Shown piece after piece: positions 30,294 through 63,897 of a stretch of DNA of 64,000 bases. Made by a program: the position numbers and the translations under genes. Position 1 is the first letter of the stretch, and every line of letters begins with the position of its first letter. The notes below the pieces were generated by a model that saw nothing but the letters and a program-made list of their open reading frames with translations, did no database searches and was not told where the DNA came from. The stretch is from Acidobacteriota bacterium (lineage in GTDB: Bacteria > Acidobacteriota > Vicinamibacteria > Vicinamibacterales > UBA2999). The stretch is from NCBI GenBank assembly GCA_030650395.1, contig JAUSDY010000171.1:6554-70553 (forward strand), given 5' to 3'.

Positions 30294-30423
30294 GGTGCGT
30301 ACAGTGCGTACAGTTCCAAGAGTGCGTACAGTGCACCGAGTGCCTAGGAGTGCCAAACACTTGGCACCCCTGGCACACGAGCACTCTTCGCACTTCAGGC
30401 ACGGTACGCACCGTACGCACCTT
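30292..30423. repeat. tandem-word composite palindrome (GTGCGTACA 9-mers) between convergent genes; possible bidirectional terminator
   Basis: aaggtgcgtacagtgcgtac...gtacgcaccgtacgcacctt. The arms consist of about 7 gtgcNNNNN / NNNNNgcac units each and start inside the TAA of the GT39 gene. Confidence 0.8.
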
Positions 30424-30429
30424 GTGCTA

Positions 30430-33378
30430 TCACCAGCGGGTTACTAACCCCAGTCCGTACATCCGTCCCTGCATGATGCTGTTGGGCGAGAGATACGAGG
30501 TCGAGAGCGAGTTGGTCGTGATGTAGCTGATGATCGCGTCCGAGTTGTTGATGTTGAACACCTCGAACGTCGGCAGCACCGAGAAGCGGCCGAACCGGAA
30601 GGTCCTCGACACTTTGAAGTCGAGCTGAACGATCCGCTCCACCGATGTGGCGCGGACGGGCTCGAGGTTATAGGTGAGCGAGGTCTGTCCGAACGTCGTC
30701 GGCATGATGACCTGGCCGGCCGGGCAGGGCGCGGGACAGTTGGCCGGGTAGCGCGTGCTGCCGCGGGTCGCCGCCATCGTCCGCGAGCTGTTGGGACCGG
30801 CGTTGCTCTGGAACGCCATGCTGACGTTGACGCCGAAGCCGATTTCCCTGGTCCCAAACAGCTTCCAGCTCGGACGGTACGGGATGTCGAGCGCGTACTC
30901 GTCGCACAGGGCTTTGCCGTTGCCGCCGTAGTTGGGATCGTCGGGCGACGTGCAGTTCTTGACCCGCTCGCGCTCGATCGAAACGCCACCGCGCACCTGG
31001 CCGCCGCCTGGAATGCGCCAGCTGCTGTCGAAGTTGAACGCCTCGTAGGAATTCTGGCGCTCCGGATCGTAGGTATCCAGGTTGCTGGTGGGCCGGGCGG
31101 CAGCCGCGGTGCTCAACGCGTAGACCTCGAACGGCTGGCCTGTGAGCGGGTTGTAGAAGGTAAAGGGCGTGTAGTCGGACAGCGACAAGCTGCGGTTAAT
31201 GGTGGTCGTCAGGTTTCTGAAGTCGCCCTTCCACCACGATCCGCTCACGGACAGACCAGCGAGGAGCTCATGCTGGAGCTCGAGACCCGACTCGAGGTTC
31301 CAGGTGCGGGGATAGTCGCCGTACTCGTTGAGGGCGGCGATGCCGTAGTTGGCGGGCAGTCCCGCGAACGAGATCTCGCACGCCGCGCTCGGGTAGCCAG
31401 TGCAACGGAAGGTGCCGTCGGCGATGTCATTGCCGTTGACGTCGCGCCATGGCAATGACCGCGTCTCCCTGCGCAGAGGGTTGTAATTGGACGCGATGCC
31501 AGTCGTCCGCGACAGGTTGTAGCGATTGAGCGAATACTTGATCGCCGTGCGGCCGTTGCCGAACAGGTCGTAGACCAGCGCCATGCGGGGCGCAAAGTCA
31601 TTCCACGCGGGGACATCCTTGATCTCGTCGAACGAGCGCTCGGGCGCAAAACGCCCGGCCCCGGACTTGCCGGCCATCACCTTGGCGTTGAGCGTTTCCC
31701 ATCGCAACCCGACGTTGGCCGTGAGCCGGTTCAGGCGCCAGGAATCTTGGACAAAGATGCCGAGATCCCGATTGAGGCGCTCGCCGTAGATCAGCGGCGT
31801 ATTGTTGATGAGAACGCTGTCTGGCACGGACCAGCGCACGCCCGTACTGCTGCTGCGATACTGCTGCGTGAGGTCCGCATTGGCCTCGCGCGTGTGGATG
31901 AACTCGCCCTGTCGATTGGTGGCGCCGGCCTTGATGGTGTGGTCGCCCTTCACGTACGTGGCGGCGAAGTTCCAGTAGAAGGCGATCGGGCTCTCCGTGG
32001 TGTTAGTCGGGCCGGCCTTGGTGTAGCCGCCCAGATCGAGCTCGTTGTGGGCGGCAGTGGCGAACCACTCGGCGCTGCCGCGCGGCTTCTCGATGCCCTC
32101 CTGGTATTCGTTCGTGTAGTACTCGGTGTTGTTGGAGTAGCCGCCCTCCAGGAAGAGGGAGCTGGACACCGGCGACGACCACTTGATGGCCGTCGTATGG
32201 TACGCCGGCGAGTTCCAGACCGTGGACGCCGTCTCAGGATCGTAATTGGCCTGCATATCGTGCCCGCGGTACTTATCGACTTCGTCGAAGTAGCCGGAGA
32301 TCTTGTTCCTCGGCGTGACCTGCCAGGTGAGGCGCGCCGTGCCGCTCTTGATGAACTGGTCGTCGATGCCCTGCGACCCATCGTCGAAGTAGGTGTTGGC
32401 GATGAAGTTATTCACCGAGTAGTAGCGCGCCGACCCGAAGATCCACAGCTTGTCTTTCTGGATCGGACCACCGAGCGCAAGCGTGTAGTCGATGATGCGG
32501 TCGATCGCATTGCCGCTGGTCAGGCCCCTGGCCTTGTGTCGATCGGTCAGGTTGCTGGACTGCCAGGTTCCCGGCCGGGACGAGGCCTTGAAATCGCCAC
32601 TGAACCGGTTGCCGCCCTCGCGCGGGATCATGTTCATGCGCACGCCGCCCGACGAGTTCTCGGCGCCGATGCCGCTGGTCTGGACGCTGACTTCCGCATT
32701 CATCGCGTCGTTGAAGTAGCTCTGGATCGCGCCGTCGCCCTGCAGGCCGTTGACCATCATGCCGTCCACCAGGATGGTGGTGTTTGACGTGGACATGCCG
32801 TGCGTGGACATGTAGGTCTGCTGCATCGCGCGGGCACCACCCGTGTCGGGCAGGCTCAGGTTGACGCCCACCACGAGCTGGGCCATCCCCTGGATGGTCC
32901 GGCCAGTCGGGACGAGATCGATCGCTTCACGGTCCAGCACCGCCACCTTGGCCGCCGTCGTCACGTCCACCACCGGCGAGGCGCCGGTCACGGTGATGGT
33001 TTCCTCGAGAGCACCGACCGCAAGCTCGGCGTTGACGGTGGCCGTAAATTCGGCAGGCAGCAACAGGCCGTCGCGCCGGTAGGTCTTGAACCCGGGCAGG
33101 GTGAACGCCACATTGTAGGTGCCCGGCCTGAGGTCGGCGATGCGGTAGTTGCCGCTTTCGTCGCTGATCGCCGACTTGACCTTCTCGATCAGGACGTCGC
33201 TCGAGGCTTCAACCGTGACGCCGGGCATCGCGGCGCCCGTCGTATCTTTCACCACGCCGGTGATTGCACTCTGGGCGTATGCCGACGACGTCAGGAGCAT
33301 CGCTCCCGCGAACGCCAACAACGCTCTGACACCGACAAACCTTAAGGTTTGTCGCCACCCGACTATTCGTCGCGCCAT
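30430..33378 (-). CDS. TonB-dependent outer-membrane receptor with N-terminal CarboxypepD_reg domain
   Basis: Signal peptide, then ITGVVKDTTGAAMPGVTVEA (carboxypeptidase-regulatory-like), a plug region, a ~900-aa barrel and terminal aromatic W. ATG 33378. Confidence 0.85.
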   Translation of the reverse strand: MARRIVGWRQTLRFVGVRALLAFAGAMLLTSSAYAQSAITGVVKDTTGAAMPGVTVEASSDVLIEKVKSAISDESGNYRIADLRPGTYNVAFTLPGFKTYRRDGLLLPAEFTATVNAELAVGALEETITVTGASPVVDVTTAAKVAVLDREAIDLVPTGRTIQGMAQLVVGVNLSLPDTGGARAMQQTYMSTHGMSTSNTTILVDGMMVNGLQGDGAIQSYFNDAMNAEVSVQTSGIGAENSSGGVRMNMIPREGGNRFSGDFKASSRPGTWQSSNLTDRHKARGLTSGNAIDRIIDYTLALGGPIQKDKLWIFGSARYYSVNNFIANTYFDDGSQGIDDQFIKSGTARLTWQVTPRNKISGYFDEVDKYRGHDMQANYDPETASTVWNSPAYHTTAIKWSSPVSSSLFLEGGYSNNTEYYTNEYQEGIEKPRGSAEWFATAAHNELDLGGYTKAGPTNTTESPIAFYWNFAATYVKGDHTIKAGATNRQGEFIHTREANADLTQQYRSSSTGVRWSVPDSVLINNTPLIYGERLNRDLGIFVQDSWRLNRLTANVGLRWETLNAKVMAGKSGAGRFAPERSFDEIKDVPAWNDFAPRMALVYDLFGNGRTAIKYSLNRYNLSRTTGIASNYNPLRRETRSLPWRDVNGNDIADGTFRCTGYPSAACEISFAGLPANYGIAALNEYGDYPRTWNLESGLELQHELLAGLSVSGSWWKGDFRNLTTTINRSLSLSDYTPFTFYNPLTGQPFEVYALSTAAAARPTSNLDTYDPERQNSYEAFNFDSSWRIPGGGQVRGGVSIERERVKNCTSPDDPNYGGNGKALCDEYALDIPYRPSWKLFGTREIGFGVNVSMAFQSNAGPNSSRTMAATRGSTRYPANCPAPCPAGQVIMPTTFGQTSLTYNLEPVRATSVERIVQLDFKVSRTFRFGRFSVLPTFEVFNINNSDAIISYITTNSLSTSYLSPNSIMQGRMYGLGLVTRW
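33333..33358 (-). repeat. GTGG-headed stem-loop (REP-like) inside the receptor signal-peptide coding region
   Basis: Minus strand reads gtgg-cgacaaacc-ttaa-ggtttgtcg, translated as VGWRQTLRFVG. The paralogue at 33473-36457 lacks these ~10 residues. Confidence 0.85.
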
Positions 33379-33396: not shown

Positions 33397-33434
33397 CACA
33401 AAAGTCGGGCGCGCGGCGGAATGCCCCGCGCCCG
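33397..33434 (-). terminator. intrinsic terminator after the second TonB-dependent receptor gene
   Basis: Minus strand reads cgggcgcg - 13-nt loop - cgcgcccg followed by acTTTTgtgg, a GC stem plus T-tract. Confidence 0.55.
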
Positions 33435-37149: not shown

Positions 37150-37234
37150 CGCGGTGCCGTAGCGCGGAACTTTAGTTCCGCGATCGCCCACACGGATTTC
37201 GCCGGTCCATAGCGGACCTAAAGGTCCGCTCTAC
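37146..37234. repeat. cluster of GTAG-headed stem-loops (REP-like)
   Basis: Partial head gtagcgcggtgcc (37146-58, including the FKBP TAG stop). Then gtag-cgcggaac-ttta-gttccgcg (37159-82) and the inverted agcggacc-taaa-ggtccgct-ctac (37211-34). Confidence 0.9.
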
Positions 37235-37243: not shown

Positions 37244-38581
37244 TTAGCGCGGAAAGCGTCCGAGCGCGACGAGCAATTCCAGGCGCGCTTGCCGCACCGC
37301 ATCCTCGCCCTGCGCGACGATGGTCTCGAGATCGCGCACCGAGCGTTGCGCATCGATCACCTCGATGTTGGTCGTGGACCCGGCATCGAAGGCGATGATC
37401 GTGATCTTCAAGACTTCGTTGGCGTGCTGTGCCGCCTGCCGCGCGCGCACCAGCGCGCGCTCCTGGGCCTCGACCGCCGCGCGCGCGACGCGCACTTCCG
37501 ACCGCGCCCGGATCTGCACCTGCTCCAGTGAGAACGACGACGCCTGCAAGCTCGCCTCGCGCTGGCGCCGCACCGCGCGGCGCGAGCCGGCGTCGTAGAG
37601 CGGCTGCGACACCTGGAACGACAGGCTCCAGCTGCGCGACGGCTGAAAGAGGCCCGACGGCGCGAGCAGCTGCGGGCCGAAGGTGACGGCCGCCGCCGGC
37701 CACCAGTCTTTCGAGCTGTCGTGAACGACCCGATCGCTCGCCTCGCGTTCGGCGGTGAACAGCTGCACGTCGGTTCGACCCGGCATCCATTCAGCCTCGG
37801 CAGTTTCAACCGGCACCTCGAAGGCCGGCTCGCCATTCACATCGACCGGCGCATTCGCGGCCAGCAGAACACCGAGCGCCTCTTGCGCGCGCCTGACGTT
37901 GAGGCGAAAGATTTCGACCAGCGCTTCGTTGCTCGCGAGGATCTGCGCCGACCGCAGCTCGTTCAACCGGCTGCCGACGCCGCCTTCACGCCGCCTGGTG
38001 TTGTAGTCGAGTTGTCCGCGCGCGGTCTGGATCGCGTTCACGCTCACCTCGACCTGCCGCTTCTGCGCGATCACGGCAAGATAGGCTGACGCGGTCGCGA
38101 CCGCGATTTGGCGGCGCGTCTCTGTGGTCGACAGGCGCGCAATCTCGACCTGGTCGAGCGCCTGCGCGCGTGCGGCCCACTGTGCGGCCGCGAGGATGGG
38201 CGCGGTGGCCGAGAGTCCGAACAGGGTCTGGTTCTGCGGCTGCACCGTTTCGCCGCCGAACGAGCGGCCGCTGTCGAGCGTGGTGTTGGTGATGTTGGCG
38301 CCGAGGCGCGGCATCACCGCCGCGCGGACCTGCTGCAGGATGGCTTCGGAGCGCAGGATGTTGGTCGAGGCAATCGCGATCGTCGGGTTCTTCTCCAACG
38401 CGCGCGCGATGGCCTCGTCGAACGTCACGGTTTCCACGGGTACCCCGAGGGCTTGAGGGCTCGAGGGCTTGAGCCTGCCCTGAGCGAAGGTGACTCCGCT
38501 TGCGGAGTCGGCTGAGTCGAAGGGGGCTTGAGAGCCCTGCGCCAACGCAGGCGTGGCGAACGACACCGCCAGCAACAACAT
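37244..38581 (-). CDS. alternative model: separately initiated TolC/OprM-like outer-membrane efflux protein
   Basis: In-frame ATG 38581 (GTG 38584) opens MLLLAVSFATPALAQG..., followed by two OMF repeat halves. This model is nested in the long ORF. Confidence 0.4.
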   Translation of the reverse strand: MLLLAVSFATPALAQGSQAPFDSADSASGVTFAQGRLKPSSPQALGVPVETVTFDEAIARALEKNPTIAIASTNILRSEAILQQVRAAVMPRLGANITNTTLDSGRSFGGETVQPQNQTLFGLSATAPILAAAQWAARAQALDQVEIARLSTTETRRQIAVATASAYLAVIAQKRQVEVSVNAIQTARGQLDYNTRRREGGVGSRLNELRSAQILASNEALVEIFRLNVRRAQEALGVLLAANAPVDVNGEPAFEVPVETAEAEWMPGRTDVQLFTAEREASDRVVHDSSKDWWPAAAVTFGPQLLAPSGLFQPSRSWSLSFQVSQPLYDAGSRRAVRRQREASLQASSFSLEQVQIRARSEVRVARAAVEAQERALVRARQAAQHANEVLKITIIAFDAGSTTNIEVIDAQRSVRDLETIVAQGEDAVRQARLELLVALGRFPR

Positions 38582-41500
38582 CACGGCACCAGCTGCCGCC
38601 GGTGCAGGCGAACCTGACGAACCCGAACGCCGTCCGCGTCCTGGCGCGATCGATCGAATCACGACGTAGAGCACCGGGATGAAGACGATCGACAGGAATG
38701 TCGAGGCCAACATGCCGCCGGCCACCGCGGTGCCGACCGAGTTGCGCGCCGCCGCGCCCGCACCGGTCGCCAGCGCCAGCGGTAGCACGCCGAGGACGAA
38801 GGCCAGCGACGTCATCAGGATCGGCCGCAACCGAATCCGCGCCGACTCGATCGCGGCGTCGACGATCGACAGCCCGCGCCCGCGCAGCTGCTCGGCAAAC
38901 TCGACGATCAGGATCGAGTTCTTCGCCGCCAGCCCGACGAGCAGCACCAGGCCGACCTGGCAGAACACGTCGTTGTTGAAGCCGCGCACCAGCTGCGCAG
39001 ACAGCGCCCCAAATACCGCCAGCGGCACGCCGAGCAGGATGATCAGCGGCAGGACGAACGACTCGTATTGCGCCGACAGCACCAGGTAGACGAGCAGCAG
39101 GCTCAGGCCGAAAATCAACCCGGCCTGGCCGCCGGCCCGGCGCTCCTCAAGCGATTGCCCGGCCCACGCGAAGTCAAACCCCGGCGGCAGATTCGCGCGC
39201 GCCAGGTCCTCCATCGCCTGCAGCGTCTGTCCCGAGCTCTGGCCGGGAGGCGGGTTGCCCGAGATCTCCGCCGACCGGAACAAATTGAAGTGGCTGATCA
39301 CCTGCGGCGCGGTCGTCTCGCGCAGGCGGACGACGCTGTCGAGCGGGATCATGTCGCCGCTCGACGCCCGCGCATACAGCTGCTTCAGGTCGGTCGGGCT
39401 GGCCCGGAACCGTTGATCCGCCTGCACGTAGACGCGGTAGGCGCGGTTGTTGAAATCGAAGTCGTTCACGTACTGCGAGCCCAGGAACACTTGCAGCGCA
39501 TCGGTCACCTCGCGCAGCGGCAGGCCCAGGCTGCGCGCCTTGTCGCGATCGATGTCCACGATCAATTGCGGATCGTCGGCACGGAAGCTGCTGAAGGCGC
39601 CCTGGACTTTTCCACTCTGATTGGCCGCCCCCATCAAGCCGAAGGTGGCGCCCGCCAGCGTGTTGATGTCGTTGGAGCCGGTTTGATCCAGCACTTCGAA
39701 CTGGAAGCCACCGAAGGCACCCACCCCCTGGATCGACGGCGGCGGGAACGCGACCACGATGGCGCCGGGAATCATGAAGAGCGGACCGCTCAAGCGCTGC
39801 AGGACCGCCGACAGCGATTGATCTGCATTGGGCCGCTCGGCATAGTCCTTCAGCCGGACGAAGATCATGCCGTTGTTCGGCGCCGCGCCGGAAAAGCTGA
39901 AGCCCATCACGGAAAACGCCGCGGCCACGTCCTTGTCGGCGTAGAGGATCTGCTCGGCCTTCTTGGCAATCTCCGTGGAGTATTCGAGCGACGCCCCGGC
40001 GGGCGCCTGCACGATCGCCATGAAAAACCCTTCGTCTTCCTGCGGCACGAACGACGAGGGCACCATCTGGAACACCGTCCACGTCGCCCACAGCCCGCCG
40101 GCAAACAGCAGCAGCATCGCGTATCGCAGCCGCAACGCCCCGCGCACGAGGCGGACGTAGCCGTTGGTCCCGGCATCGACGACGCGATTGAATCCGGTGA
40201 AGAAGCGGCCGTGCGTGTGCGACTCCTTGTCGAGCAGCAGCGCCGCCAGCGCGGGCGTCAGCGTCACGGCGTTGAACACCGACAACACCACCGAAAACGC
40301 GATGGTCAGCGAGAACTGCTGATACAAGCGCCCGGTCACGCCGGGGAAGAACGCCACGGGCACGAACACCGCCACCAGCACGATGCCAATCACGACCACC
40401 GCGCCAAACACTTCGCGCATCGCGTCAACAGCGGCCTGCCGCGCCGACTTGTGAAACTCGCGCATGTGCCGCTCGATGTTCTCGATCACCACAATCGCAT
40501 CGTCGACCACGATGCCGGTGGCCAGCACGATGCCGAACAGCGTCAGCGTGTTGATCGAGAAGTCGAACAGCTTGATGAAGGCGAACGTCCCGATCAGTGA
40601 CACCGGGATCGTGATGGCCGGAATGATCGTGCTCCGCCAGTTCTGCAGGAACAGGAACATCACCAGGATCACAAGGCCGATCGCTTCCGCGAGCGTCCAC
40701 AGCACTTCGACGATCGATTCGCGCACGACGACGACGTTGTCGAAGGCGACCTGCCACTCGAGGCCCGGCGGGAAGCTCAGCTTGAGCCGATCCATCTCGG
40801 CGACCACGCCTCTGAACACTTCGATCGCATTGGCCGAGGGCAGCAGCGAAATGCCGATGCCCTGGGCTTCGAGGCCGAGGAACCGCAGGTTGGACGAATA
40901 GGTTTCGGCGCCGAGCTCGACACGGCCGACGTTTTTCACGCGCACCAGCGCGCCGTCCTTGCCGGCCTTGACGACGACGTCCTCGAACTCGGGCGCCTCG
41001 GACAGACGGCCCATGGCGCGCACGCTGATGGTGTATTGCTGACCGACAGTAGCCGGCGCATCACCCAGCGCGCCCGCGGCCACCTGCACGTTCTGTTCGC
41101 GCAGCGCGCCCAGCACATCGGCCGCCGTGATGTTGTGGCCCGCCAGCTTCGACGGATCGAGCCAGAGCCGCATCGCGAACTTGCGCTCGCCGAACACGAT
41201 CACGTCGCCGACGCCGGGGACACGCTTGATCGCGTCGCGGATGTACAAGTCGATGTAGTTGCTGATGAACAGGCTCGAATAGCGGTTGTCCTTCGAAAAG
41301 AACCCGAGCCCGCCGATGAAGCCGCTAGCGACCTTGACGACCGAAATGCCGTTCTGGCGCACCTCCGCCGGCATGCGGCCGAGCGCCTGGTTGACGCGGT
41401 TCTGCACGTCGACGGCCGCGAGATCCTGATCGCGATCGACGTCGAACGTGACGGTGATCGTCGCAAAGCCGCTGTTGGTGCTGGACGAGGTCATGTAGCT

Positions 41501-41728
41501 CATGCCCTCGACGCCGTTGATGGCCTGCTCGAGCGGGGTGGTCACCGCGCTCTCGACGGCTTGCGCGTTGGCACCGGTATAGAACGCGGACACCGTGACC
41601 GCCGGCGGCGCCAGGTCCGGATAGCGGGCAATCGGCAGCGTCGGAATCGACACCGCGCCGGCGAGGATGATCAGCAGCGAGCAGACCGTTGAGAGGACGG
41701 GCCTGCGAATGAACACGTCGGCCATCAT
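37244..41728 (-). CDS. RND (AcrB/MexB-type) efflux permease continuing without a stop codon into a TolC/OprM-like outer-membrane factor (single 1494-codon ORF)
   Basis: The first ~1048 codons are typical HAE1 RND (MMADVFIRRPVLS...). Then come a G/S/P/A linker, a signal-like segment VMLLLAVSFATPALA-QG and ~430 codons of OMF repeats. No in-frame stop separates them. Confidence 0.8.
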   Translation of the reverse strand: MMADVFIRRPVLSTVCSLLIILAGAVSIPTLPIARYPDLAPPAVTVSAFYTGANAQAVESAVTTPLEQAINGVEGMSYMTSSSTNSGFATITVTFDVDRDQDLAAVDVQNRVNQALGRMPAEVRQNGISVVKVASGFIGGLGFFSKDNRYSSLFISNYIDLYIRDAIKRVPGVGDVIVFGERKFAMRLWLDPSKLAGHNITAADVLGALREQNVQVAAGALGDAPATVGQQYTISVRAMGRLSEAPEFEDVVVKAGKDGALVRVKNVGRVELGAETYSSNLRFLGLEAQGIGISLLPSANAIEVFRGVVAEMDRLKLSFPPGLEWQVAFDNVVVVRESIVEVLWTLAEAIGLVILVMFLFLQNWRSTIIPAITIPVSLIGTFAFIKLFDFSINTLTLFGIVLATGIVVDDAIVVIENIERHMREFHKSARQAAVDAMREVFGAVVVIGIVLVAVFVPVAFFPGVTGRLYQQFSLTIAFSVVLSVFNAVTLTPALAALLLDKESHTHGRFFTGFNRVVDAGTNGYVRLVRGALRLRYAMLLLFAGGLWATWTVFQMVPSSFVPQEDEGFFMAIVQAPAGASLEYSTEIAKKAEQILYADKDVAAAFSVMGFSFSGAAPNNGMIFVRLKDYAERPNADQSLSAVLQRLSGPLFMIPGAIVVAFPPPSIQGVGAFGGFQFEVLDQTGSNDINTLAGATFGLMGAANQSGKVQGAFSSFRADDPQLIVDIDRDKARSLGLPLREVTDALQVFLGSQYVNDFDFNNRAYRVYVQADQRFRASPTDLKQLYARASSGDMIPLDSVVRLRETTAPQVISHFNLFRSAEISGNPPPGQSSGQTLQAMEDLARANLPPGFDFAWAGQSLEERRAGGQAGLIFGLSLLLVYLVLSAQYESFVLPLIILLGVPLAVFGALSAQLVRGFNNDVFCQVGLVLLVGLAAKNSILIVEFAEQLRGRGLSIVDAAIESARIRLRPILMTSLAFVLGVLPLALATGAGAAARNSVGTAVAGGMLASTFLSIVFIPVLYVVIRSIAPGRGRRSGSSGSPAPAAAGAVMLLLAVSFATPALAQGSQAPFDSADSASGVTFAQGRLKPSSPQALGVPVETVTFDEAIARALEKNPTIAIASTNILRSEAILQQVRAAVMPRLGANITNTTLDSGRSFGGETVQPQNQTLFGLSATAPILAAAQWAARAQALDQVEIARLSTTETRRQIAVATASAYLAVIAQKRQVEVSVNAIQTARGQLDYNTRRREGGVGSRLNELRSAQILASNEALVEIFRLNVRRAQEALGVLLAANAPVDVNGEPAFEVPVETAEAEWMPGRTDVQLFTAEREASDRVVHDSSKDWWPAAAVTFGPQLLAPSGLFQPSRSWSLSFQVSQPLYDAGSRRAVRRQREASLQASSFSLEQVQIRARSEVRVARAAVEAQERALVRARQAAQHANEVLKITIIAFDAGSTTNIEVIDAQRSVRDLETIVAQGEDAVRQARLELLVALGRFPR
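38445..38537. repeat. compound element (GGGCTTGA words + flank-conserved/variable-stem unit) inside the OMF coding region
   Basis: gagggcttgagggctcgagggcttgag + ccctgagcgaagg-t-gactccg-cttg-cggagtc-ggct-gagtcgaaggg + ggcttgagagccc. Translated as SQAPFDSADSASGVTFAQGRLKPSSPQALG. Confidence 0.85.
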
Positions 41729-41731: not shown

Positions 41732-41794
41732 TAGGTGCCTCGGGTGCCTAGGGTGCCTAAGGTGCCTAGGGTGCTTTGGGTGCCTGAGGTGCGG
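41732..41794. repeat. tandem 9-mer array (NNGGTGCCT x7) spanning the MFP stop and the MFP-RND spacer
   Basis: taggtgcct cgggtgcct agggtgcct aaggtgcct agggtgctt tgggtgcct gaggtgcgg. On the minus strand it encodes the MFP tail PQAPKAP, then TAG-containing repeats. Confidence 0.9.
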
Positions 41795-43006: not shown

Positions 43007-43870
43007 ATGGGTGAGATGCAGGACGTACTGAAGGGTTTCAGCCGCGGGATGTACAGCAACTGGATGTGGCACAAGCCGCTGCAGCTGCTCGTCGATGCCG
43101 GCGAAGGCCTGCAGCTCGCTCTCGGCTCCAATGTGTTCTCCCCATCAGTGCTCGCCGTCACCCACGGCCACTCCGATCACGTCATGGGGATCCCGGGCCT
43201 GATCGCATCCAGGCGCTTCGGCAAGGGCGCGGTCGACAAGCCGCTGACCGTCTACTATCCGGAACAATCGCGCGGCGTGCAGGGCGTTCGCGAGCTGCTC
43301 GGCATTTCCTACGCGGGCGTGGTGTTCCCCGTGACCTGGACGGCGCTCACGGCCGGCGCGATCGTGCCGCTGGGAAAGACGCGAAGCCTGCATGCCTTTG
43401 CGGTGCGGCACACGGCCGCTGAACCAGCGCTTGGCTATAAAGTGGTCGAGACCAGACGGCGGCTCAAGCCGGAGTTTGCCGCCTTGACGCAGGCAGAGGT
43501 CGAGGCCAGTGCGCGCCAAGGCCGGCGCGACGAGCTGCTCGAGGAGATGGCGCACGTCACGTTCGCGCATTCCGGGGATGCCATGCCGATCGACCCCGCG
43601 CTCGTGGCCGGCGCCGATCTGCTGGTGCATGACGCGACCTTTCTGAGCGAGCCCGATCGGCGCGAGCCGATTCACGCCACCACCGAAGAAGCCCTCGAGG
43701 TCGCGCGCGCGGCGGCCGTCAAGACGTTGGTGCTGTACCACCTCTCGATTCGCTACGATCGGGCCACGGCCCTTCCCATCCTTCGCGCGCAAGTCGCTGC
43801 CAGCGGTTTCACAGGCGAGTGCCTGCTGCTCGATGAGGGCGAATTCATCGAAATAACCAAGAACCAATAA
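43007..43870 (+). CDS. MBL-fold metallo-hydrolase (RNase Z/ElaC-like)
   Basis: THGHSDH (HxHxDH) motif and later His/Asp ligands (HDATF, YHLS). 287 aa. Confidence 0.7.
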   Translation: MGEMQDVLKGFSRGMYSNWMWHKPLQLLVDAGEGLQLALGSNVFSPSVLAVTHGHSDHVMGIPGLIASRRFGKGAVDKPLTVYYPEQSRGVQGVRELLGISYAGVVFPVTWTALTAGAIVPLGKTRSLHAFAVRHTAAEPALGYKVVETRRRLKPEFAALTQAEVEASARQGRRDELLEEMAHVTFAHSGDAMPIDPALVAGADLLVHDATFLSEPDRREPIHATTEEALEVARAAAVKTLVLYHLSIRYDRATALPILRAQVAASGFTGECLLLDEGEFIEITKNQ

Positions 43871-43935
43871 CCAATAACCAAAACGGAGAGCCGCCTTTCG
43901 TTATTTCTTTATTCGTTATTTGTTATTCTTCTTAG
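43850..43935. repeat. AATAACCAA-word element (A-rich arm then T-rich arm)
   Basis: gaaataaccaagaaccaataaccaataaccaaaacg ... cgttatttctttattcgttatttgttattcttctt. The left arm encodes the MBL tail ITKNQ and its stop. Arm complementarity is only partial. Confidence 0.75.
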
Positions 43936-44232: not shown

Positions 44233-44292
44233 TCCACCTTCGCCAAGGCTTCCACCTCCGCCAAGGCTACGGCGGACAAGACGGCGGACGAG
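44233..44292. repeat. tandem-word spacer element between gatC and gatA
   Basis: 2 x 18-mer tccacct(t/c)cgccaaggct followed by 2 x 12-mer acggcggac(a/g)ag. tccgcc / ggcgga are complementary. Confidence 0.8.
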
Positions 44293-45742: not shown

Positions 45743-46186
45743 TGGCGATTGTCCTTCCGCTCTGCGCCGCATACGCGCTGTGGTGCCTGTTCACGATGCC
45801 GGCAGGACCGATCACCACGCCAGACTCGGTGCACTATCTCAATGCCTCGCCGATCGTTCCGCTCGGCTACCCGCTCTTCCTGAACCTCGTCGGCGCGCGC
45901 GGCGCGATGTTCGCGCAGCCGATGCTGTTTGCGGCGGCGCTCGCCGTGCTCGGGCGCGAAACCATTCGCCTTGTGGACGGTCGATCGCCTGCGGCACCCC
46001 GACACCGCTGCCCCGCTCACGCAGTTCATCGCGAGCAATCGGCCGCTGCCGTTCGAAAAGGAGGCGTTCCGCGTCGATCCCGACGTCACGATCGCCTTCA
46101 CCGCCGACGGCTTATGGCCGGCGATCACCACGGCAGCGCTGTATGGTGTCTGGGCGGTTTGGGTTAAGTTGAAAGTTGAAAGTTGA
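45742..46186 (+). pseudogene. frameshifted small membrane-protein gene (possible remnant)
   Basis: ATG 45742 (TGATG overlap with gatA) opens a high-GC3 hydrophobic frame up to about 45955. High GC3 then continues in the +1 frame (KPFALWTVDRL...WAVWVKLKVES, stop 46184-86). The original frame becomes Arg-rich and low-GC3. Confidence 0.4.
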
Positions 46187-46318
46187 AAGTTGAGAGTTTC
46201 AGTTGCCAGTTCAGTTGGAAGTGTGAAGTCTTACGTTCGCGTGGGCGAGTCGAACTTTGAACTCAAAACTGAACTTGAAACTGAAACTTCCAACTTTCAA
46301 CTTTCAACTTTCAACTTG
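46166..46318. repeat. 153-nt tandem-word composite palindrome (GTTGAAA heptamers + AGTTCAGTT words)
   Basis: gttgaaa x3-4 + gagtttcagttgccagttcagttggaagt opposes aactgaacttgaaactgaaacttcc + aactttc x3-4, with a ~40-nt central loop. Confidence 0.9.
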
Positions 46319-46323
46319 ACCGG

Positions 46324-47535
46324 TCACTGAGCGGTCATGTTGGGACGACCCTGTCGGAGAACGTACTTCTGTATTTTCCCGGTGGCGGTCTTCGGTAACT
46401 CCGCGATCGGGGTAAAGCCGTGCGGCACCTTGAAGTGGGCCATGTTCGCCCGGCAAAACTCGCGCAATGCCTCGGCGGTAGCCGACTGGCCGCTCTTGAA
46501 CACCACGAACGCGTGCGGCGCCTCGCCCCATTTGTCGTGGGGCAGCCCGACGACGGCGGCTTCCTGGATGGCGTCGTGGCGAAGCAGCATGGCCTCGACT
46601 TCGACCGATGAAATGTTCTCGCCGCCGCTGATAATCACGTCCTTCAGCCGATCGGTGATCTGGACGTAGCCGTCGGGGTGCACGACCGCGGCATCGCCGG
46701 TGTGAAACCAGCCGTCGCCCATGCATTTCGCGGTGGCCTCGGGGTCGTTGTAGTACCCCGCCATGATGACGTTGCCGCGGGCGATGATTTCTCCCGCGGA
46801 CGTGCCGTCCGCGGGCACCTCTCGGCCGTTTTCGTCCACCACCCGCAGCTCGCCGGAGGTGATGAGCTCGACGCCCTGGCGAGATTTGATGCGGGCGCGG
46901 TCCGACGCGCCGAGCGCGTCGTGTTCGGGCAGCGGCTCGCAGATGCTGATGGCCGGGGCGGTTTCGGTGAGGCCGTAGATCTGCGTCACGGTCCACCCCA
47001 TCTCGCCCTCGATGCGCTCGATCGTCACGGCCGCGGGCGGCGCGCCGGCCGTCATCACGCCCACGCCGCGCGGCAGCCCGGCCTTCACCTCCGCGGGCGC
47101 GCTGGCCAGCATGATCAGCACGGTGGGCGCCGCGCACATCCGTGTGATGCGCTCGTCCTTCACCAGCCGGAACACGGTCGCGGCCTCGAGCTTGGATCCG
47201 GGGCCCCCACCACGCGTACTTTGCGTGGTGGGGTGGAGGCACACGTGCGTCGCGCCGGCGGCCGTCACCGTCCACGTGAACGTCCAGCCGTTGGCGTGGA
47301 ACATCGGCAGCGTCCACAGGTAGCGATCGCGCGGCGTCATCGGCGTGTGCACCAGCATGCCGACGCAGTTCATCCACGCGTTGCGATGCGTGATCATCAC
47401 GCCCTTGGGACGCGACGTGGTGCCGCTGGTGTAGTTGATCGTCAGCAGATCGCGCTCGCCGATCGCGGGCGGCGTGAAGCGCGCCGTCGCCGCGGCGACG
47501 AGCGTTTCGTAATCGAGCCATCCTTCTCTCGACAA
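46324..47535 (-). CDS. acyl-CoA synthetase (AMP-binding enzyme), C-terminal 403-codon fragment
   Basis: Contains INYTSGTTSRPKGVMITH and the remaining AMP-binding/C-terminal domain motifs. Separated from its N-terminal part by an in-frame TGA. The only start available is TTG 47535. Confidence 0.65.
   Translation of the reverse strand: MSREGWLDYETLVAAATARFTPPAIGERDLLTINYTSGTTSRPKGVMITHRNAWMNCVGMLVHTPMTPRDRYLWTLPMFHANGWTFTWTVTAAGATHVCLHPTTQSTRGGGPGSKLEAATVFRLVKDERITRMCAAPTVLIMLASAPAEVKAGLPRGVGVMTAGAPPAAVTIERIEGEMGWTVTQIYGLTETAPAISICEPLPEHDALGASDRARIKSRQGVELITSGELRVVDENGREVPADGTSAGEIIARGNVIMAGYYNDPEATAKCMGDGWFHTGDAAVVHPDGYVQITDRLKDVIISGGENISSVEVEAMLLRHDAIQEAAVVGLPHDKWGEAPHAFVVFKSGQSATAEALREFCRANMAHFKVPHGFTPIAELPKTATGKIQKYVLRQGRPNMTAQ
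47198..47238. repeat. 41-nt CCACCACGCG hairpin element inside the acyl-CoA synthetase fragment
   Basis: ccggggc-ccccaccacgc-gtacttt-gcgtggtgggg-tggag, 39/41 identical to the intergenic copy at 54794-54834. Translated as HPTTQSTRGGGPGS. Confidence 0.9.
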
Positions 47536-47555
47536 ACCTCAAGGTTTGTCGCCAC
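47530..47555 (-). repeat. GTGG-headed stem-loop (REP-like) that interrupts the acyl-CoA synthetase reading frame
   Basis: Minus strand reads gtgg-cgacaaacc-ttga-ggtttgtcg. The loop TGA (47539-41) is the in-frame stop. A 21-nt tandem duplication (47551-71 / 47572-92) is adjacent. Confidence 0.9.
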
Positions 47556-47979
47556 CTCGGTCGAGCGCGACGCCACCTCCGTCGAGCGCGACGAAGTGCG
47601 TGACATCAGGCAGGCTGGCGCGGATGGAATCCACCGCGTCGAGGTAGTCGGCCGACGCGCACACCACCTTCGCGCCGCTGTGTTGGATCAGGTATTTGAA
47701 GTCGTCCGCAATCAACCGGAAGTTGAGCGGCACCAGCACGGCGCCCATCTGGGGCACCGCATAGAACGCCTCGAGCTGCGCGTGCGAGTTCGGCGCGATG
47801 TAAGCGACCCGGTCGCCGGGGCCGACGCCCATTTCGTGCAGGACGCTCGACCACCGATCGCAGCGATCGCCGAACGCCTCGTAGGTCCAGCGCTCCGCGC
47901 CATCAACGACCGCTTCGCGATTGCCGTGAAGCCGCCGCGCACGGCGCATGAATTCCAGTGGGGTCAGCGCCACTTCCAT
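47539..47979 (-). CDS. acyl-CoA synthetase (AMP-binding enzyme), N-terminal 146-codon fragment
   Basis: MEVALTPLEFMRRARRLHGNREAVVDG...VAYIAPNSHAQLEAFYAVPQMGAVLVPLNFRL is a typical N-terminus of medium-chain acyl-CoA ligases. It ends at the TGA in the hairpin loop. Confidence 0.65.
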   Translation of the reverse strand: MEVALTPLEFMRRARRLHGNREAVVDGAERWTYEAFGDRCDRWSSVLHEMGVGPGDRVAYIAPNSHAQLEAFYAVPQMGAVLVPLNFRLIADDFKYLIQHSGAKVVCASADYLDAVDSIRASLPDVTHFVALDGGGVALDRGGDKP

Positions 47980-47997
47980 AGTGCGCGGGATTGTAGT

Positions 47998-48116
47998 TGA
48001 GTTCAGAGTGCAGCGTTAAGAGTTAAGAGTTAAGAGTTAAGAGTTAAGAGTTAAGAGTTAAGAAAAATGCCTCGAGTTCGGAGTTCTTAACTCTAAACTC
48101 TTAACGCTGAACTCAG
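47998..48116. repeat. tandem-word composite palindrome (7 x GTTAAGA heptamers)
   Basis: tgagttcag(agtgcag)cgttaagag pairs with ctcttaacgctgaactca. The left arm carries 7 GTTAAGA units (48015-63) against about 2 in the right arm. Confidence 0.9.
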
Positions 48117-48815: not shown

Positions 48816-48896
48816 GGACTTGAGGGCTTGAGGACTTGAAGGGCTTGAGGACTTGAAGGCGACCAAGCCCCCAAGCCCTTAAGCCCCCAAGCCCTG
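48816..48896. repeat. tandem-word composite palindrome (GGRCTTGA / CCAAGCCC words)
   Basis: ggacttgagggcttgaggacttgaagggcttgaggacttgaaggc opposes gaccaagcccccaagcccttaagcccccaagccc. It lies between the dnaK stop and the rpoZ-like start. Confidence 0.85.
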
Positions 48897-50622: not shown

Positions 50623-50665
50623 ATTTTCTGGTCCTCCTGAGGACGGATCGATAGTGCCTATTTTA

Positions 50666-50706
50666 TGAGTGTTTGTAAAGCAATTTATATTAGTTATTAA
50701 CACTCA
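50666..50706. promoter_or_regulatory. inverted repeat in the AT-rich dnaK / hsp20 divergent control region
   Basis: TGAGTGTT-N25-AACACTCA, embedded in the most AT-rich ~60 bp of the window, between divergent heat-shock genes. Confidence 0.35.
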
Positions 50707-50824
50707 CATACATAAGACGCTGGAAACTCCACGAAGTTCCACGTGGTCCCTGGCTAGCTCGACCATTTTCGGAGCCCGGAGGCCCGGCGCCCGGAGCCCG
50801 GACAAAGCGCTAGAATCGAAGGGA

Positions 50825-52119: not shown

Positions 52120-53606
52120 GCAAACTCCCCTTCGACGAGGAACCGCCACCAACCAAGGTGCCGAAGGCACCAGCACAGGTGCGTACGGTGCCAGCGGTGC
52201 CTAAGGGGTTGGTGCCTAATGTGCCTATCGTGCCTAAGGTACAGGCGCCGACGGTGCAGGTGCCGGTGCGACAAGTCCTCACAGTCAGCGAGTTGTCAGC
52301 CACGATTCGCGATGCGCTCGAGACGAAGTTTCAGAAGGTCTGGGTCGAGGGCGAGATTTCTAACGCTCGGCTGTGGAATACCGGCCACCTGTATTTCACG
52401 CTGAAAGACAGCGCGTCGCAGATCAAGGGCGTGATGTTCCGCTCGGCGCTGCGCTACCTGAAGTTCAAGCCTGAAGACGGGCTGCACGTCGTGGCGCGCG
52501 GGAAGATCAGCGTCTACGACCCGAAAGGCGAATACCAGATCATCTGCGAGCACCTCGAGCCCAAGGGCTTCGGGCCGCTGCAGCTCGCCTTCGAGCAGCT
52601 CAAGAAAAAGCTTCTGGCCGAGGGGCTGTTCGACGCGGCGCGCAAGCGTGCGCTGCCTGCCCTGCCCAGGCGGATCGGCCTGGTGACCTCGATCGACGGC
52701 GCGGCGCTGCGCGACATGGTGCGCGTGCTGCGCCGCCGTTATCCCAATGCGCATTTGATTATCTCGCCGTCACGCGTCCAGGGTGAAGGCGCGGCCGCCG
52801 AAGTGGTGCGCGCGCTCAAGCTCGTGACGCGCGTGCAGCACGTGGATGTGGTGATCGTCGCCCGCGGCGGCGGCTCGCTCGAAGACCTGTGGGCGTTCAA
52901 CGACGAGGCCCTGGCCCGTGCCATCGCGGCGTCGCCGGTGCCGGTGATCTCGGGCGTCGGCCACGAGACCGACGTCACGATCTGCGATTTCGTTTCCGAC
53001 CTTCGCGCCGCGACACCGTCGGCGGCCGCCGAGCTCGTGGTGCGCAGGAAAGACGAGTTTGTTGCGCAGATCACCCGCACCTGCGGCCAGCTCGATGCCG
53101 CGCTTCGTAATCGCCTCCGCCGGATGGAATCGCGGCTGCATTCGCTCGAAGCGCGGTCGGGGTATGCGGGGTTTGCCGGCCGGCTGGCGTTTCGCGGCCG
53201 CCATACCTCCGAGTTGACCGCGGCGCTGCGTCACGCCGCCGGCCACGAGATCGCCAGGCGATCGCGCCGGCACGAACAGCTGCGCCGCTCGCTCGATCAG
53301 TTCGACCCGCGCCATCGGCTCGGCGCGGTCCGGACGCGGCTGGTGTCGCGCGAAGCGCAGTTGACCGCCGCTGCGCGGCGGCGAATCGGCGTGCTGCAAT
53401 CGCGATTCGGGGGACTGGCCGCGCGAATCGAAGGCCTCAGTCCTCTGGCTGTGCTCGGCCGCGGCTACGCCGTGACCTGGGACGCCGCCCGAACGCGTAT
53501 TATTCGTGACGCAGCCACGGTCAAGCCCGGCGACGATATTCGCGTGACGCTTGAAAAAGGCGTCATCGACGCAACAGTAACGAGAACTCATGGACCCGAC
53601 CATTAA
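52116..53606 (+). CDS. xseA: exodeoxyribonuclease VII large subunit
   Basis: OB-fold N-terminus (LTVSELSATIRDALE...VWVEGEISN) plus the catalytic and coiled C-terminal regions. ATG 52116 overlaps the ymdB stop. An alternative GTG 52266 would exclude the repeat-encoded first 50 codons. Confidence 0.85.
   Translation: MSKLPFDEEPPPTKVPKAPAQVRTVPAVPKGLVPNVPIVPKVQAPTVQVPVRQVLTVSELSATIRDALETKFQKVWVEGEISNARLWNTGHLYFTLKDSASQIKGVMFRSALRYLKFKPEDGLHVVARGKISVYDPKGEYQIICEHLEPKGFGPLQLAFEQLKKKLLAEGLFDAARKRALPALPRRIGLVTSIDGAALRDMVRVLRRRYPNAHLIISPSRVQGEGAAAEVVRALKLVTRVQHVDVVIVARGGGSLEDLWAFNDEALARAIAASPVPVISGVGHETDVTICDFVSDLRAATPSAAAELVVRRKDEFVAQITRTCGQLDAALRNRLRRMESRLHSLEARSGYAGFAGRLAFRGRHTSELTAALRHAAGHEIARRSRRHEQLRRSLDQFDPRHRLGAVRTRLVSREAQLTAAARRRIGVLQSRFGGLAARIEGLSPLAVLGRGYAVTWDAARTRIIRDAATVKPGDDIRVTLEKGVIDATVTRTHGPDH
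52156..52268 (+). repeat. degenerate 9-mer array (GTGCCTNNN) at the 5' end of xseA
   Basis: aaggtgccg aaggcacca ... gcggtgcct aaggggttg gtgcctaat gtgcctatc gtgcctaag ..., the same GGTGCCT word as 41732-94. Would encode KVPKAPAQVRTVPAVPKGLVPNVPIVPKVQAPTVQVPV. Confidence 0.8.
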
Positions 53607-54783: not shown

Positions 54784-54868
54784 AGGGGTCAGACCGGGGC
54801 CCCCGCCACGCGGACTTTGCGTGGTGGGGTGGAGACCCCTCGGCACTTCTTGCTCGGGGTCAGACCCC
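54784..54868. repeat. spacer with the 41-nt CCACCACGCG hairpin element flanked by GGGGTCAGACC(CC) palindromes
   Basis: aggggtc...gacccct outer pairing. The core 54794-54834 is 39/41 identical to 47198-47238. A perfect palindrome ggggtcagacccc (54856-68) lies 1 nt before the tlyA GTG. Confidence 0.85.
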
Positions 54869-54869: not shown

Positions 54870-55619
54870 GTGAAGAAGCGCCAGCGGCTCGATGCGCTGC
54901 TCGTCGAGCGAGGCCTGGTTGAGTCGCGTGTCAAGGCGCGCGCGCTCATTCTCGCGGGACAAGTCGACGTTGGCGGGCACGGCGCCGAGAAGGCCGGCAC
55001 GATGGTGCCGAACGACGCCGAGGTGAAGGTGCTCGGCCCCGATCACCCCTGGGTCAGCCGCGGCGGCATCAAGCTCGCCTTTGCGCTCGACGCGTTTCAG
55101 ATCAGCGCGGCGGGGGCGTTCGTGCTGGACGTGGGCGCGTCGACGGGCGGGTTCACCGATGTGTGGCTGCACCGCGGGGCGCGCCAGGTCATCGCCCTCG
55201 ACGTCGGGCACGGCCAGCTGCATTGGCAGATCCGCAGCGACCCGCGCGTGACGGTGATCGAACACTTCAACGCGCGTTACTTGAAGTCCGGCGATCTACC
55301 CGAGACCGACGCCCCGATCACGCGCGTCAGCATCGACGTGTCGTTCATTTCGCTCCGCCACATTTTCCCGGTGTTGCCCGCGATCGTCGCGTCGGGCAGC
55401 GAGATCGTCGCGCTCGTCAAGCCCCAGTTCGAGGCCGGCCGCGCCGAGGTCGGCAAGGGCGGGCTGGTGAAGGATCCCAAAGTGCATGACCGTGTGGTCC
55501 GCGACGTCGAGGCCGCCGCCGCTGAAGTAGGATTGAGCCGCGTTGGCCTGGTGGAGTCGCCCATCACCGGCGCACACGGGAACCAGGAATTCCTGATGCA
55601 CCTCAGAGTGCAGAGTTAA
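54870..55619 (+). CDS. tlyA: TlyA-family rRNA (cytidine-2'-O)-methyltransferase
   Basis: N-terminal S4 domain (RLDALLVERGLVESRVKARALI) and FtsJ-like SAM motif (LDVGASTGGFTDV). Confidence 0.85.
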   Translation: MKKRQRLDALLVERGLVESRVKARALILAGQVDVGGHGAEKAGTMVPNDAEVKVLGPDHPWVSRGGIKLAFALDAFQISAAGAFVLDVGASTGGFTDVWLHRGARQVIALDVGHGQLHWQIRSDPRVTVIEHFNARYLKSGDLPETDAPITRVSIDVSFISLRHIFPVLPAIVASGSEIVALVKPQFEAGRAEVGKGGLVKDPKVHDRVVRDVEAAAAEVGLSRVGLVESPITGAHGNQEFLMHLRVQS

Positions 55620-55635
55620 GAGTGCAGAGTTAAGA
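55604..55635. repeat. heptamer-word array (CAGAGTG CAGAGTT AAGAGTG CAGAGTT AAGA) bridging tlyA and nadK
   Basis: Same word family as 47998-48116 and 63719-63790. It encodes the tlyA tail RVQS plus TAA and ends at the nadK ATG. Confidence 0.85.
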
Positions 55636-60609: not shown

Positions 60610-60635
60610 AGGCGGGTCTAAAGACCCGCCTCTAC
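60610..60635 (-). repeat. GTAG-headed stem-loop (REP-like) immediately after hup; possible terminator
   Basis: aggcgggtc-taaa-gacccgcct-ctac (inverted orientation), followed 7 nt later by ttttt. Confidence 0.85.
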
Positions 60636-63445: not shown

Positions 63446-63469
63446 CGAATTACCAATAACGAAAAGACA

Positions 63470-63493
63470 GGTAGCGCGGAACTTTAGTTCCGC
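63470..63493 (+). repeat. GTAG-headed stem-loop (REP-like), CGCGGAAC stem
   Basis: gtag-cgcggaac-ttta-gttccgcg. The 27-mer including the atc tail is identical to 37159-37185. It is preceded by AATAAC words (63433-65). Confidence 0.9.
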
Positions 63494-63511
63494 GATCAGA
63501 GTTTGGGAATC

Positions 63512-63718: not shown

Positions 63719-63790
63719 GACGAGTTAAGAGTTAAGAGTTCGGAGTTAAGAGCATTAGTTCTTAACTCGTAACTCTGCACTCTGAACTCC
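63719..63790. repeat. tandem-word composite palindrome (GAGTTAA / GAGTTCG heptamers)
   Basis: gagttaagagttaagagttcggagttaagagc - att - agttcttaactcgtaactctgcactctgaactc. Confidence 0.85.
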
Positions 63791-63856: not shown

Positions 63857-63897
63857 GGCACCCCTAAAGGGGTGCCCTACTAAGCGGGGTGCCCTAC
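63857..63897 (-). repeat. GTAG-headed stem-loop (REP-like, GGCACCCC stem) plus a second partial copy
   Basis: ggcacccc-taaa-ggggtgcc-ctac (63857-80) and ggggtgcc-ctac (63886-97). Confidence 0.9.

Follow-up and report, generated by a model that had tools for sequence, protein, structure and literature searches.

The window analyzed here is a 64,000-nt stretch of DNA (contig JAUSDY010000171.1, positions 6,554 to 70,553, of assembly GCA_030650395.1) from a member of the Vicinamibacterales described as a soil acidobacterium. It is 65% G+C and its gene content is ordinary housekeeping: gatCA, dnaK, rpoZ, acnA, queG, lpxBD, xseAB, TonB-dependent receptors and a resistance-nodulation-division (RND) pump. 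The closest named relatives for its GatA and QueG proteins are Vicinamibacterales metagenome-assembled genomes, at 70–79% identity. Many of its intergenic spacers are occupied by tandem arrays of short words, often followed by an array of the reverse complements of those words. The element at 46166-46318 is such a word palindrome, and it takes up the whole spacer between two convergent genes, a decayed membrane-protein gene and the gene for an AMP-binding enzyme (stop codon 46324-46326).

Both arms of this focal element are made of AAGTTGA heptamers, as found by Tandem Repeats Finder (TRF), and AGTTTCAGTT-type words, so that (AAGTTGA)4 and the AGTTTCAGTT-type words lead into a 24-nt center that is followed by their mirrored complement. 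An inverted-repeat search places the arms at 46162-46229 and 46254-46321, each 68 nt long, with 84% complementarity. The minimum free energy of the folded RNA is −89.4 kcal/mol (z = −12.1), and 0 of 200 dinucleotide shuffles fold equally well; the folding energy of the DNA is −53.1 (z = −11.4). For comparison, contigs were fetched around GatA, the AMP-binding enzyme and QueG (L081–L088 and L165–L168; protein identity 76–94%). The orthologous spacer, which is 153 nt in the window, measures 121 nt in L083, and L082 has a direct ACAGTTA array only. The stop codon of the decayed membrane-protein gene (46184-46186) sits within the focal array, which also encodes its final codons. This gene, which follows gatA and encodes 454–461 aa in L082 and L083, is reduced in the window to a remnant at 45748-46186 that matches residues 1–74, 315–361 and 429–453 only, across a frame change.

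The original prediction listed 17 loci in the window as arrays of words followed by arrays of their reverse complements. Each listed locus was folded, and TRF and the inverted-repeat search were run on the window. About a dozen of the loci, named here by their start positions, are indeed hairpins of this kind (813, 4001, 5813, 25531, 27975, 28638, 30292, 43850, 46166, 47998, 48816 and 63719). Loci 7651, 41732 and 55604 are direct arrays without a mirrored arm, 6522 joins two different arrays, and 44233 belongs to another class of hairpin. TRF returns periods of 7 nt (11 arrays), 8 nt (4), 9 nt and 10 nt, with 2.5–9.3 copies, and a few loci have 12- or 18-nt units; element lengths span 32 to 170 nt.

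The loci had also been described as each different in sequence, which is an overstatement. Comparison of the window with itself yields at least six dispersed word families within the 64 kb, and distant loci reach 92% identity. The accompanying claims of word reuse between distant loci all hold. Family A (AAGTTGA plus AACTGAACTT) comprises 7651 and 46166, with 92% identity over 61 nt between 7677-7737 and 46258-46318. Family B (GGGCTTGA) comprises 6522, 27975, 38447 and 48816, with 85% identity over 74 nt between 27977-28047 and 48895-48822 and a 23-mer that is 100% identical at 6522-6544 and 38449-38471. Family C (AATAACS) is found at 4001, 19046, 43850 and 63433, and family D (GTTCAGA/GTGCAGA/GTTAAGA) at 47998, 55604 and 63719 as well as in L084 and L086. 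Family E (GGTGCCT) is represented by 41732 and family F (TGCCTTC) by 6553 and 7384, and the remaining elements are singletons with units of 8, 9, 10 and 18 nt. Families A–D are confined to the window and close relatives, while family E extends to more distant acidobacteria. Likeness between loci (92%) can exceed that between the arms of one palindrome (84%).

On a curated gene map, 18 of the 30 spacers of at least 15 nt carry an array or a word palindrome, with coverage by the element above 70% in 11 of these spacers. The claim that such elements occupy most spacers is thus sound, but the single architecture attributed to them is not, as one-arm arrays are common and the hairpin is not the universal unit. 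A strict palindrome detector (minimum arm length 18 nt, minimum complementarity 78% and equal 5–20-nt periodicity in both arms) finds 7–8 palindromes in the window, where inspection finds about 12, versus 0 in each of 20 block-shuffled copies. The density of strict palindromes is 0.11 per kb in the window, compared with 0.011–0.013 per kb in a second control, other bacterial loci totalling 1.9 Mb. Arrays whose period is not a multiple of 3 number 31 per 100 kb, against 5.8–10.6 elsewhere. An Rfam scan of the whole window at gathering thresholds matched tRNA-Val alone.

Assembly artefact, named in the original prediction as an outcome that would refute it, can be ruled out. The 7651 array is identical in L164, an independent Logan assembly of raw reads, and orthologues of the elements are present in JGI and ENA metagenomes. 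Short-read contigs break or carry N gaps exactly at arrays, as at the end of L164 and at 1832-1930 of L082, and the elements are probably under-represented in metagenome assemblies.

Comparison with the related contigs reveals rapid turnover at orthologous gene ends. As anticipated, the same words recur at orthologous spacers in different numbers of units, and arrays altered in this way are found in L081–L084, L166 and L168. The spacer between the DUF179 and M49 peptidase genes has 3 versus 4–5 units per arm between genomes; the 18-nt-unit palindrome of the window is longer in L166 and L167 (237-nt spacer), L168 has a family-A array at this site, and L165 has nothing. The LactB-gatC spacer differs among three genomes within the same family. 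Its palindrome at 43850 is orthologous in L081 and L082 and absent in L085 and L087, and its left arm carries C in 3/3 units where L081 has G, without a compensating change in the right arm.

At five spacers, an element is present in some genomes and missing from others. Where the site is filled, either the element starts within about 10 nt of the stop codon or the last codons are replaced and a new stop is provided. The csoR and M49 genes overlap by 20 nt in L166, where no element is present, and are parted in the window by a family-C palindrome, each arm of which provides the TAA stop for its own gene. The 47998 site holds direct arrays in L084 and L086 and none in L083, L087 and L082. The 3' end of dnaK (48816) is occupied by a GGGCTCC palindrome in L084 and by an unrelated, simple hairpin in L083, and is almost bare in L082. 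The 6522 element is orthologous in L168; L165 and L166 have an empty site there, and their C-terminal codons look like single words. Because orthologous sites are found both filled and empty, no single element is essential. Filled-versus-empty alignments contain no regular target-site duplications; the csoR/M49 site has a duplicated overlap segment, without parallel at the other sites. The acnA-queG spacer of L165 (5551-5827) and L168 (1998-2261) is a 264–277-nt nested palindrome in which outer CACAGAGAC-type word arrays surround inner hairpins. These folds, computed on stretches of 283 and 270 nt that include the flanking stop and start codons, reach about −150 kcal/mol and represent a larger composite of the same architecture.

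The anatomy of the arms bears on how the palindromes originated. Arrays gain and lose units and homogenize word variants within an arm, which is slippage-type concerted evolution. In the elements at 46166 and 47998, variant words, including the rare GCGTTAA word, are mirrored in order across the arms; a palindrome of this kind would therefore derive from inverted copying of an already heterogeneous array, not from independent slippage in each arm. Mismatches at 63719, 28638 and 25531 recur at fixed word positions, and family-D words combine a constant GAGT with a variable NNN. One and the same family-A composite, made up of (AAGTTGA)n and then (AGTTTCAGTTTNA)n, occurs in the acnA-queG spacer of the window and in the DUF179-M49 spacer of L168. 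These spacers are not orthologous, which indicates copying between loci too, not only local generation. The same observation weakens a purely in-situ origin from local seeds. The proposal that the elements arise locally by slippage and strand-switch copying thus agrees with the unit-number changes and the mirrored variants, but has to be extended to include inter-locus copying.

Arrays begin at, or replace, the final codons of the upstream gene, and the stop codon is often supplied by the array. Palindromes lie in all three convergent spacers that are free of GTAG-type hairpins (see below) and also at boundaries between functionally unrelated co-directional genes. Direct-only arrays lie within likely operons (hlyD-RND pump, tlyA-nadK) and one lies in a promoter region (dnaK-hsp20); the four divergent spacers that are free of palindromes hold at most one direct array. 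An exclusive 3'-end location is ruled out by the CGGAGCC array in the divergent dnaK-hsp20 spacer. A fixed orientation with respect to the upstream gene fits family A (5/5) and the family-C direct arrays, but fails for family D (55604 versus L084 and L086).

Canonical terminators, consisting of a hairpin and a T-tract, occur at chance level (15 sites versus 12.4 ± 3.8 in shuffles, and 18 versus 12.4 ± 3.8), and some other structure presumably therefore ends transcripts. A T-run is present only at 33397-33434, a previously noted canonical terminator that we confirm on the minus strand, and at the hairpin after rpoZ. Relatives without an array often have another hairpin at the same gene end, as at the dnaK 3' end of L083 and between the AMP-binding gene and gatA in L085.

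We propose that these elements are short-unit tandem repeats, mostly of 7–10 nt, that have been amplified in this lineage and that colonize gene-end spacers as hypervariable sequence. Arrays would expand by slippage, and palindromes would form through a strand switch during replication across an array already in place (snap-back or quasi-palindrome copying). Movement from locus to locus could proceed via microhomology-guided template switching or recombination, without a transposase. The long imperfect hairpins at convergent and operon-boundary spacers would serve as transcript-end structures that lack a U-tract, acting in termination and/or in protection against 3' decay, and one-arm arrays and in-gene copies would be tolerated by-products. 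Taken as a whole, with slippage, strand-switch mirroring and inter-locus copying at gene ends and with the hairpins as putative transcript-end structures, this is the account toward which we lean. Its evolutionary part, namely the three copying processes at gene ends, we hold with moderate confidence, and the role of the hairpins as putative terminators or stabilizers without a U-tract is plausible but unproven.

Several observations weigh against this account. None of the word-palindrome stems in the window is followed by a T-run. Wobble mismatches in the arms have no strand bias (12 G-T versus 11 A-C), and sense and antisense folding energies differ in no consistent direction, so nothing points specifically to selection at the RNA level. 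The hairpin at 43850 has decayed without compensation, one-arm arrays that are incapable of forming hairpins occupy equivalent positions, and the empty orthologous sites mean that individual elements are dispensable. As for the copying, single-word seeds are visible at some empty sites (at the u114 stop in L083, GAGTTAAG; where queG ends in L165 and L166, AAGCAGAAGC and CAAGCCCGCAAGTCC), so that parallel growth in situ could account for part of the sharing of families. Inter-locus copying itself is inferred from sequence similarity, with neither a donor-recipient event nor a junction signature resolved.

Much of this would be expected if the arrays were functionless, neutral or selfish hypermutable DNA that gathers at the 3' boundaries of genes, the sole non-coding DNA of a compact genome in which insertions do no harm, the hairpin being no more than the footprint of a mutational mechanism. 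Although we regard it as doubtful, this is the main rival explanation. It accommodates the coexistence of filled and empty orthologous sites at no obvious cost, the replacement of one family by another at a single site, the uncompensated arm decay at 43850, the mismatches without RNA-strand bias, and the copies tolerated in protein loops, a domain linker and a promoter region. It does not predict that convergent spacers and operon boundaries should be where palindromes concentrate, with no more than a direct array in divergent spacers free of palindromes, nor that relatives lacking an array should so often keep another hairpin at the same gene end, in a region where canonical terminators are not enriched.

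It is improbable, in our estimation, that the arrays are laid down by an active mechanism that recognizes gene ends or hairpin architecture and not sequence. Candidates for such a mechanism may include a polymerase capable of template switching or end joining, or an enzyme of the reverse-transcriptase type that places word repeats on breaks close to stop codons. If true, this would explain why one architecture spans unrelated word families, why stop codons are the precise starting points of arrays, and why sister genomes carry one composite array at different gene ends.

Still less credible is the possibility that the arrays are binding sites for a DNA- or RNA-binding protein, whether of the IHF/HU type proposed for Geobacter, of a cold-shock type that would bind single-stranded heptamers, or through G-quadruplexes of the G-rich family B. 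Constant word cores with variable positions, such as GAGT+NNN in family D, and the presence of families at several loci would suit such sites, as would the overlap of one array with the −35 hexamer of a promoter-like TTAACG-18-TACAAT sequence and the location of another at the hsp20 promoter; similar proposals exist in the literature (PMC2700814; PMC4679880; PMC4692102). However, many proteins would be needed to serve six or more unrelated word families whose units measure 7, 8, 9, 10 and 18 nt, words and unit numbers change freely among close relatives at dispensable sites, and no candidate protein gene is linked in the window. Least probable of all are several non-autonomous families resembling MITEs (miniature transposable elements with inverted repeats) or repetitive extragenic palindromes (REPs), moved by an enzyme encoded elsewhere and with tandem words as secondary internal expansions: the composite array at non-orthologous sites of related genomes, the inter-locus identity above that between arms, the sharp insertion at stop codons and the genuine GTAG-tagged REP-like hairpins of this genome speak for them, but the elements lack target-site duplications, fixed termini, a fixed length and a GTAG/CGTC tag, one-arm copies are common, empty sites hold word-like seeds, and no transposase or REP-associated tyrosine transposase (RAYT) was found among 40 window proteins scanned against Pfam.

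The elements are a dense, multi-family case of a known kind, inverted-pair long simple sequence repeats, newly documented for the Vicinamibacterales. They share with that class at least three head-to-tail copies of a 5–11-nt unit, as measured by TRF, a nearby reverse-complement array, and a mostly intergenic location that is conserved while the repeat number varies. The architecture is not without precedent, having already been described for Xanthomonas (PMC4692102) and for Geobacter metallireducens (PMC2700814). In Xanthomonas, about 185 arrays of the heptamer GGGAATC include 70–75 convergent opposite-strand pairs; 83% of their positions are conserved between two species while their lengths differ, and their function is unknown (Rehm et al., 2015, PMC4692102). 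Tandem 7-nt units, a mostly intergenic location, a 65% GC genome and a mixture of single and paired arrays are common to both systems. Unlike the elements described here, the Xanthomonas arrays use one dominant G-rich word, studied as a G-quadruplex former (PMC4692102), whereas the window holds at least six mostly AT-rich word families with units of 7–18 nt, at a higher local density and with frequent overlap or supply of stop codons. In G. metallireducens, class 1–3 paired global-regulator sites (24, 21 and 8 pairs) consist of 3–5 tandem 7–9-nt repeats paired with an opposite-strand copy at variable distance; they are intergenic, for example between proB and proA, and absent in the sister species (Aklujkar et al., 2009, PMC2700814). 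They too are tandem-repeat families with opposite-strand partners between genes, with arms that are shorter and more uniform than here, and were read as putative IHF/HU sites; unit turnover was compared here, but not for those pairs (PMC2700814). Against the at least six families in 64 kb here, one word family is reported for the Xanthomonas genome and three for that of Geobacter.

Tandem heptamers of cyanobacteria, the short tandemly repeated repetitive (STRR) sequences, were reportedly described in 1990 by Mazel and colleagues. Heptamer repeats of unknown function are also found in Beggiatoaceae and Nostoc (PMC4679880; bioRxiv 10.1101/2022.06.06.494920), and the TAACTGA repeats of Beggiatoaceae are almost all direct and lie upstream of start codons (PMC4679880). 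The elements of the window resemble the cyanobacterial and Beggiatoaceae heptamers in their intergenic tandem units, many with stop codons, and in their scattered phylogenetic distribution; the cyanobacterial word sets differ, and TAACTGA is mostly direct and at start codons. Among our control loci, word palindromes are visible in the cyanobacterial loci L014, L051 and L059, and the same architecture appears in Terriglobia, Nitrospirota, Geobacteraceae, Chlamydiota and Planctomycetota, with a 256-nt example in another acidobacterium.

Other classes fit less well. REPs and bacterial interspersed mosaic elements (BIMEs) are 20–40-nt simple palindromes with a GTAG/CGTC tag, are moved by RAYTs and are thought to affect termination and mRNA stability (PMC3733652). 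Like them, the word palindromes form hairpins and are high-copy, extragenic and found at 3' ends and between operon genes; unlike them, they are built of tandem words, have arms of up to 68 nt, extend to about 150 nt and carry no tag, which argues against a REP/BIME identity. As the original prediction stated, the elements are neither classical MITEs, since they have no regular target-site duplication and no uniform length and occur as one-arm copies, nor CRISPR arrays, since their units are contiguous and no unique spacers are seen. As intrinsic terminators, they have a fitting stem and position but lack the T-run.

Rickettsia palindromic elements (RPEs) insert in frame into protein-coding genes, and in pneumococcal BOX elements, which form hairpins, the tandem boxB units vary in number. 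RPEs and BOX elements are each a defined sequence family whose ends are fixed, and neither is wholly made of 7–10-nt words. The palindrome at 28638-28777 (plus strand; 10-nt units, GTTCAGAAGG / GAACCCTTCA) is an in-frame insertion of the RPE kind, while BOX provides the parallel for tandem units within a hairpin. The 28638 palindrome is stop-free in the used frame only, its right arm being spared a TGA by a periodic A-A mismatch. The insertion falls in a loop of a PMT_2/TPR protein (aa 189–235) and adds about 28 aa compared with L081, where the same loop is shorter and contains a different array, CACCGG x3.

For decades, heptamer-type repeats and inverted pairs have been on record in cyanobacteria, Xanthomonas, Geobacter and Beggiatoaceae, yet neither their function nor their origin has an accepted explanation. 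A lineage with many families at high density, together with numerous related metagenomic contigs, makes gain, growth, mirroring, replacement and loss readable at orthologous gene ends. If the hairpins end or stabilize transcripts, they would indicate a form of operon punctuation in a phylum where canonical terminators are scarce; otherwise, they would provide a clean natural system for slippage and strand-switch mutagenesis. The repeats also alter stop codons, the C-termini and loops of proteins, and the overlaps of genes, and in practice the arrays break short-read assemblies and mislead open reading frame (ORF) callers.

The individual elements illustrate this range. The other family-A locus, 7651-7737, is a one-arm array (12-mer x4.2 plus TCAACTT x4.7) that occupies the whole acnA-queG spacer, gives acnA its stop codon and forms no hairpin. 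Among family-C loci, the AATAACC palindrome at 4001-4067 lies between the convergent csoR-like and M49 peptidase genes, and the palindrome at 43850-43935 occupies the LactB-gatC spacer and supplies the LactB stop; the direct array at 19046-19085 fills the 32-nt lpxD-M16 spacer, and that at 63433-63464 marks a gene end. The family-D palindrome at 47998-48116 is placed between the u140 stop, which is inside the right arm, and the start of the AMP-binding gene. Its arms are unequal, as predicted, with 7+ versus about 4 units and not the 2 units given for the shorter arm. A promoter-like TTAACG-18-TACAAT sequence, a consensus-level match only, lies here at 47990-48019 on the minus strand, with the start of the AMP-binding gene about 12 nt downstream. 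A family-D word makes up its −35 hexamer, and every relative conserves the TACAAT/ATTGTAGT box. The family-D direct array at 55604-55635 contains the ftsJ/tlyA-like stop and makes up the entire 16-nt spacer before nadK, and the family-D palindrome at 63719-63790 lies directly 3' of a stop codon, with arm mismatches at word positions 5–7.

Family-B palindromes occupy the GSIII to PMT/TPR spacer (27975-28070; GGGCTTGA) and the region 3' of the dnaK stop (48816-48896). At 6522-6579, 3' of the queG stop, a family-B array (the 8-mer GGGCTYGA x2.6) stands beside a family-F array (the 7-mer TGCCTTC x3.9); the two differ and pair through G-T only. A further family-B array, in its stop-free orientation, is found at 38447-38473 in an inter-domain linker. 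The ORF that contains it (37244-41728) encodes a single 1494-aa protein in which an AcrB-type RND pump (aa 1–1025) is fused to an outer-membrane efflux (OEP) domain (aa 1103 onward), and L081 is without the entire hlyD-pump block between FKBP and LactB. The family-E direct array (GGTGCCTAG x5.8) at 41732-41794 covers the hlyD-like gene's 3' end and the spacer preceding the RND pump gene. A second GGTGCCT locus, 52156-52265, is not an intergenic element but the conserved Val-Pro-rich N-terminal tail of XseA: about 40 aa before the OB fold (window 52150-52270) are encoded by GGTGCC-type 9-nt repeats, and the tail is conserved in L082 and L083 with differing unit numbers.

Four further elements are palindromes: an 18-nt-unit element (TCCCGTCAAGAGGTGCCC) 3' of the DUF179 stop (5813-5939), a 9-nt-unit element (GTGCGTACA) that occupies the convergent PMT/TPR to TonB-receptor spacer (30292-30423), an 8-nt-unit element (CAGGAGAY) about 190 nt upstream of the GSIII gene (25531-25592), and an unequal composite at 813-984. 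The last starts 6 nt past the stop of a cytochrome c gene and has two GGTTCA-type units on the left and GAACCTCT x5.6 on the right, about 110 nt apart. The divergent dnaK-hsp20 spacer holds the CGGAGCC x4.6 direct array at 50770-50802, with a conserved TAGAAT box just downstream of it. The same spacer contains, at 50650-50720, an inverted repeat (ATGAGTGTT ... AACACTCAT) that is conserved in L082 and L083 and is possibly a heat-shock operator.

Hairpins of other kinds are also present. The locus 44233-44292 is not a word palindrome but a member of a dispersed hairpin family (TCCRCCTYCGCCAAGGCTACGGCGGA / TCCRCCTYCGCCAAGGCTACGGCGGACAAG), with other copies at 1250-1289, at about 2890-2925 of L166 and at 1811-1999 of L082. 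The TCCRCCTYCGCCAAGGCTACGGCGGACAAG hairpin separates gatC from gatA in the window and in L082, while these genes overlap by 4 nt in L081 and L083; in L166 its translation extends QueG at the C-terminus, and in L082 it coincides with a scaffold gap. GTAG-tagged REP-like short hairpins with TTTA/TAAA loops follow gene ends (GTAGGGCACCCCTTTATGGGGTGCC, GTAGCGCGGAACTTTAGTTCCGCG and GGCGGGTCTAAAGACCCGCC; at 12794-12818, 22802-22826 and 63857-63881, at 37159-37185 and 63471-63497, and at 60612-60632), and similar ones occur in L081. The gene for the AMP-binding enzyme is split by an in-frame stop at 47539-47541 (region 47530-47600). Relative to L083, it carries a short insertion in which a tandem duplication of 21 nt (47550-47593) is accompanied by a 20-nt palindrome, GACAAACCTCAAGGTTTGTC; this palindrome recurs at 33333-33359. 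Finally, a 41-nt hairpin-containing repeat, GGGGCCCCCRCCACGCGKACTTTGCGTGGTGGGGTGGAG, is found with 95% identity at 47198-47238, within the AMP-binding coding sequence, and at 54794-54834, in the ispA-ftsJ spacer.

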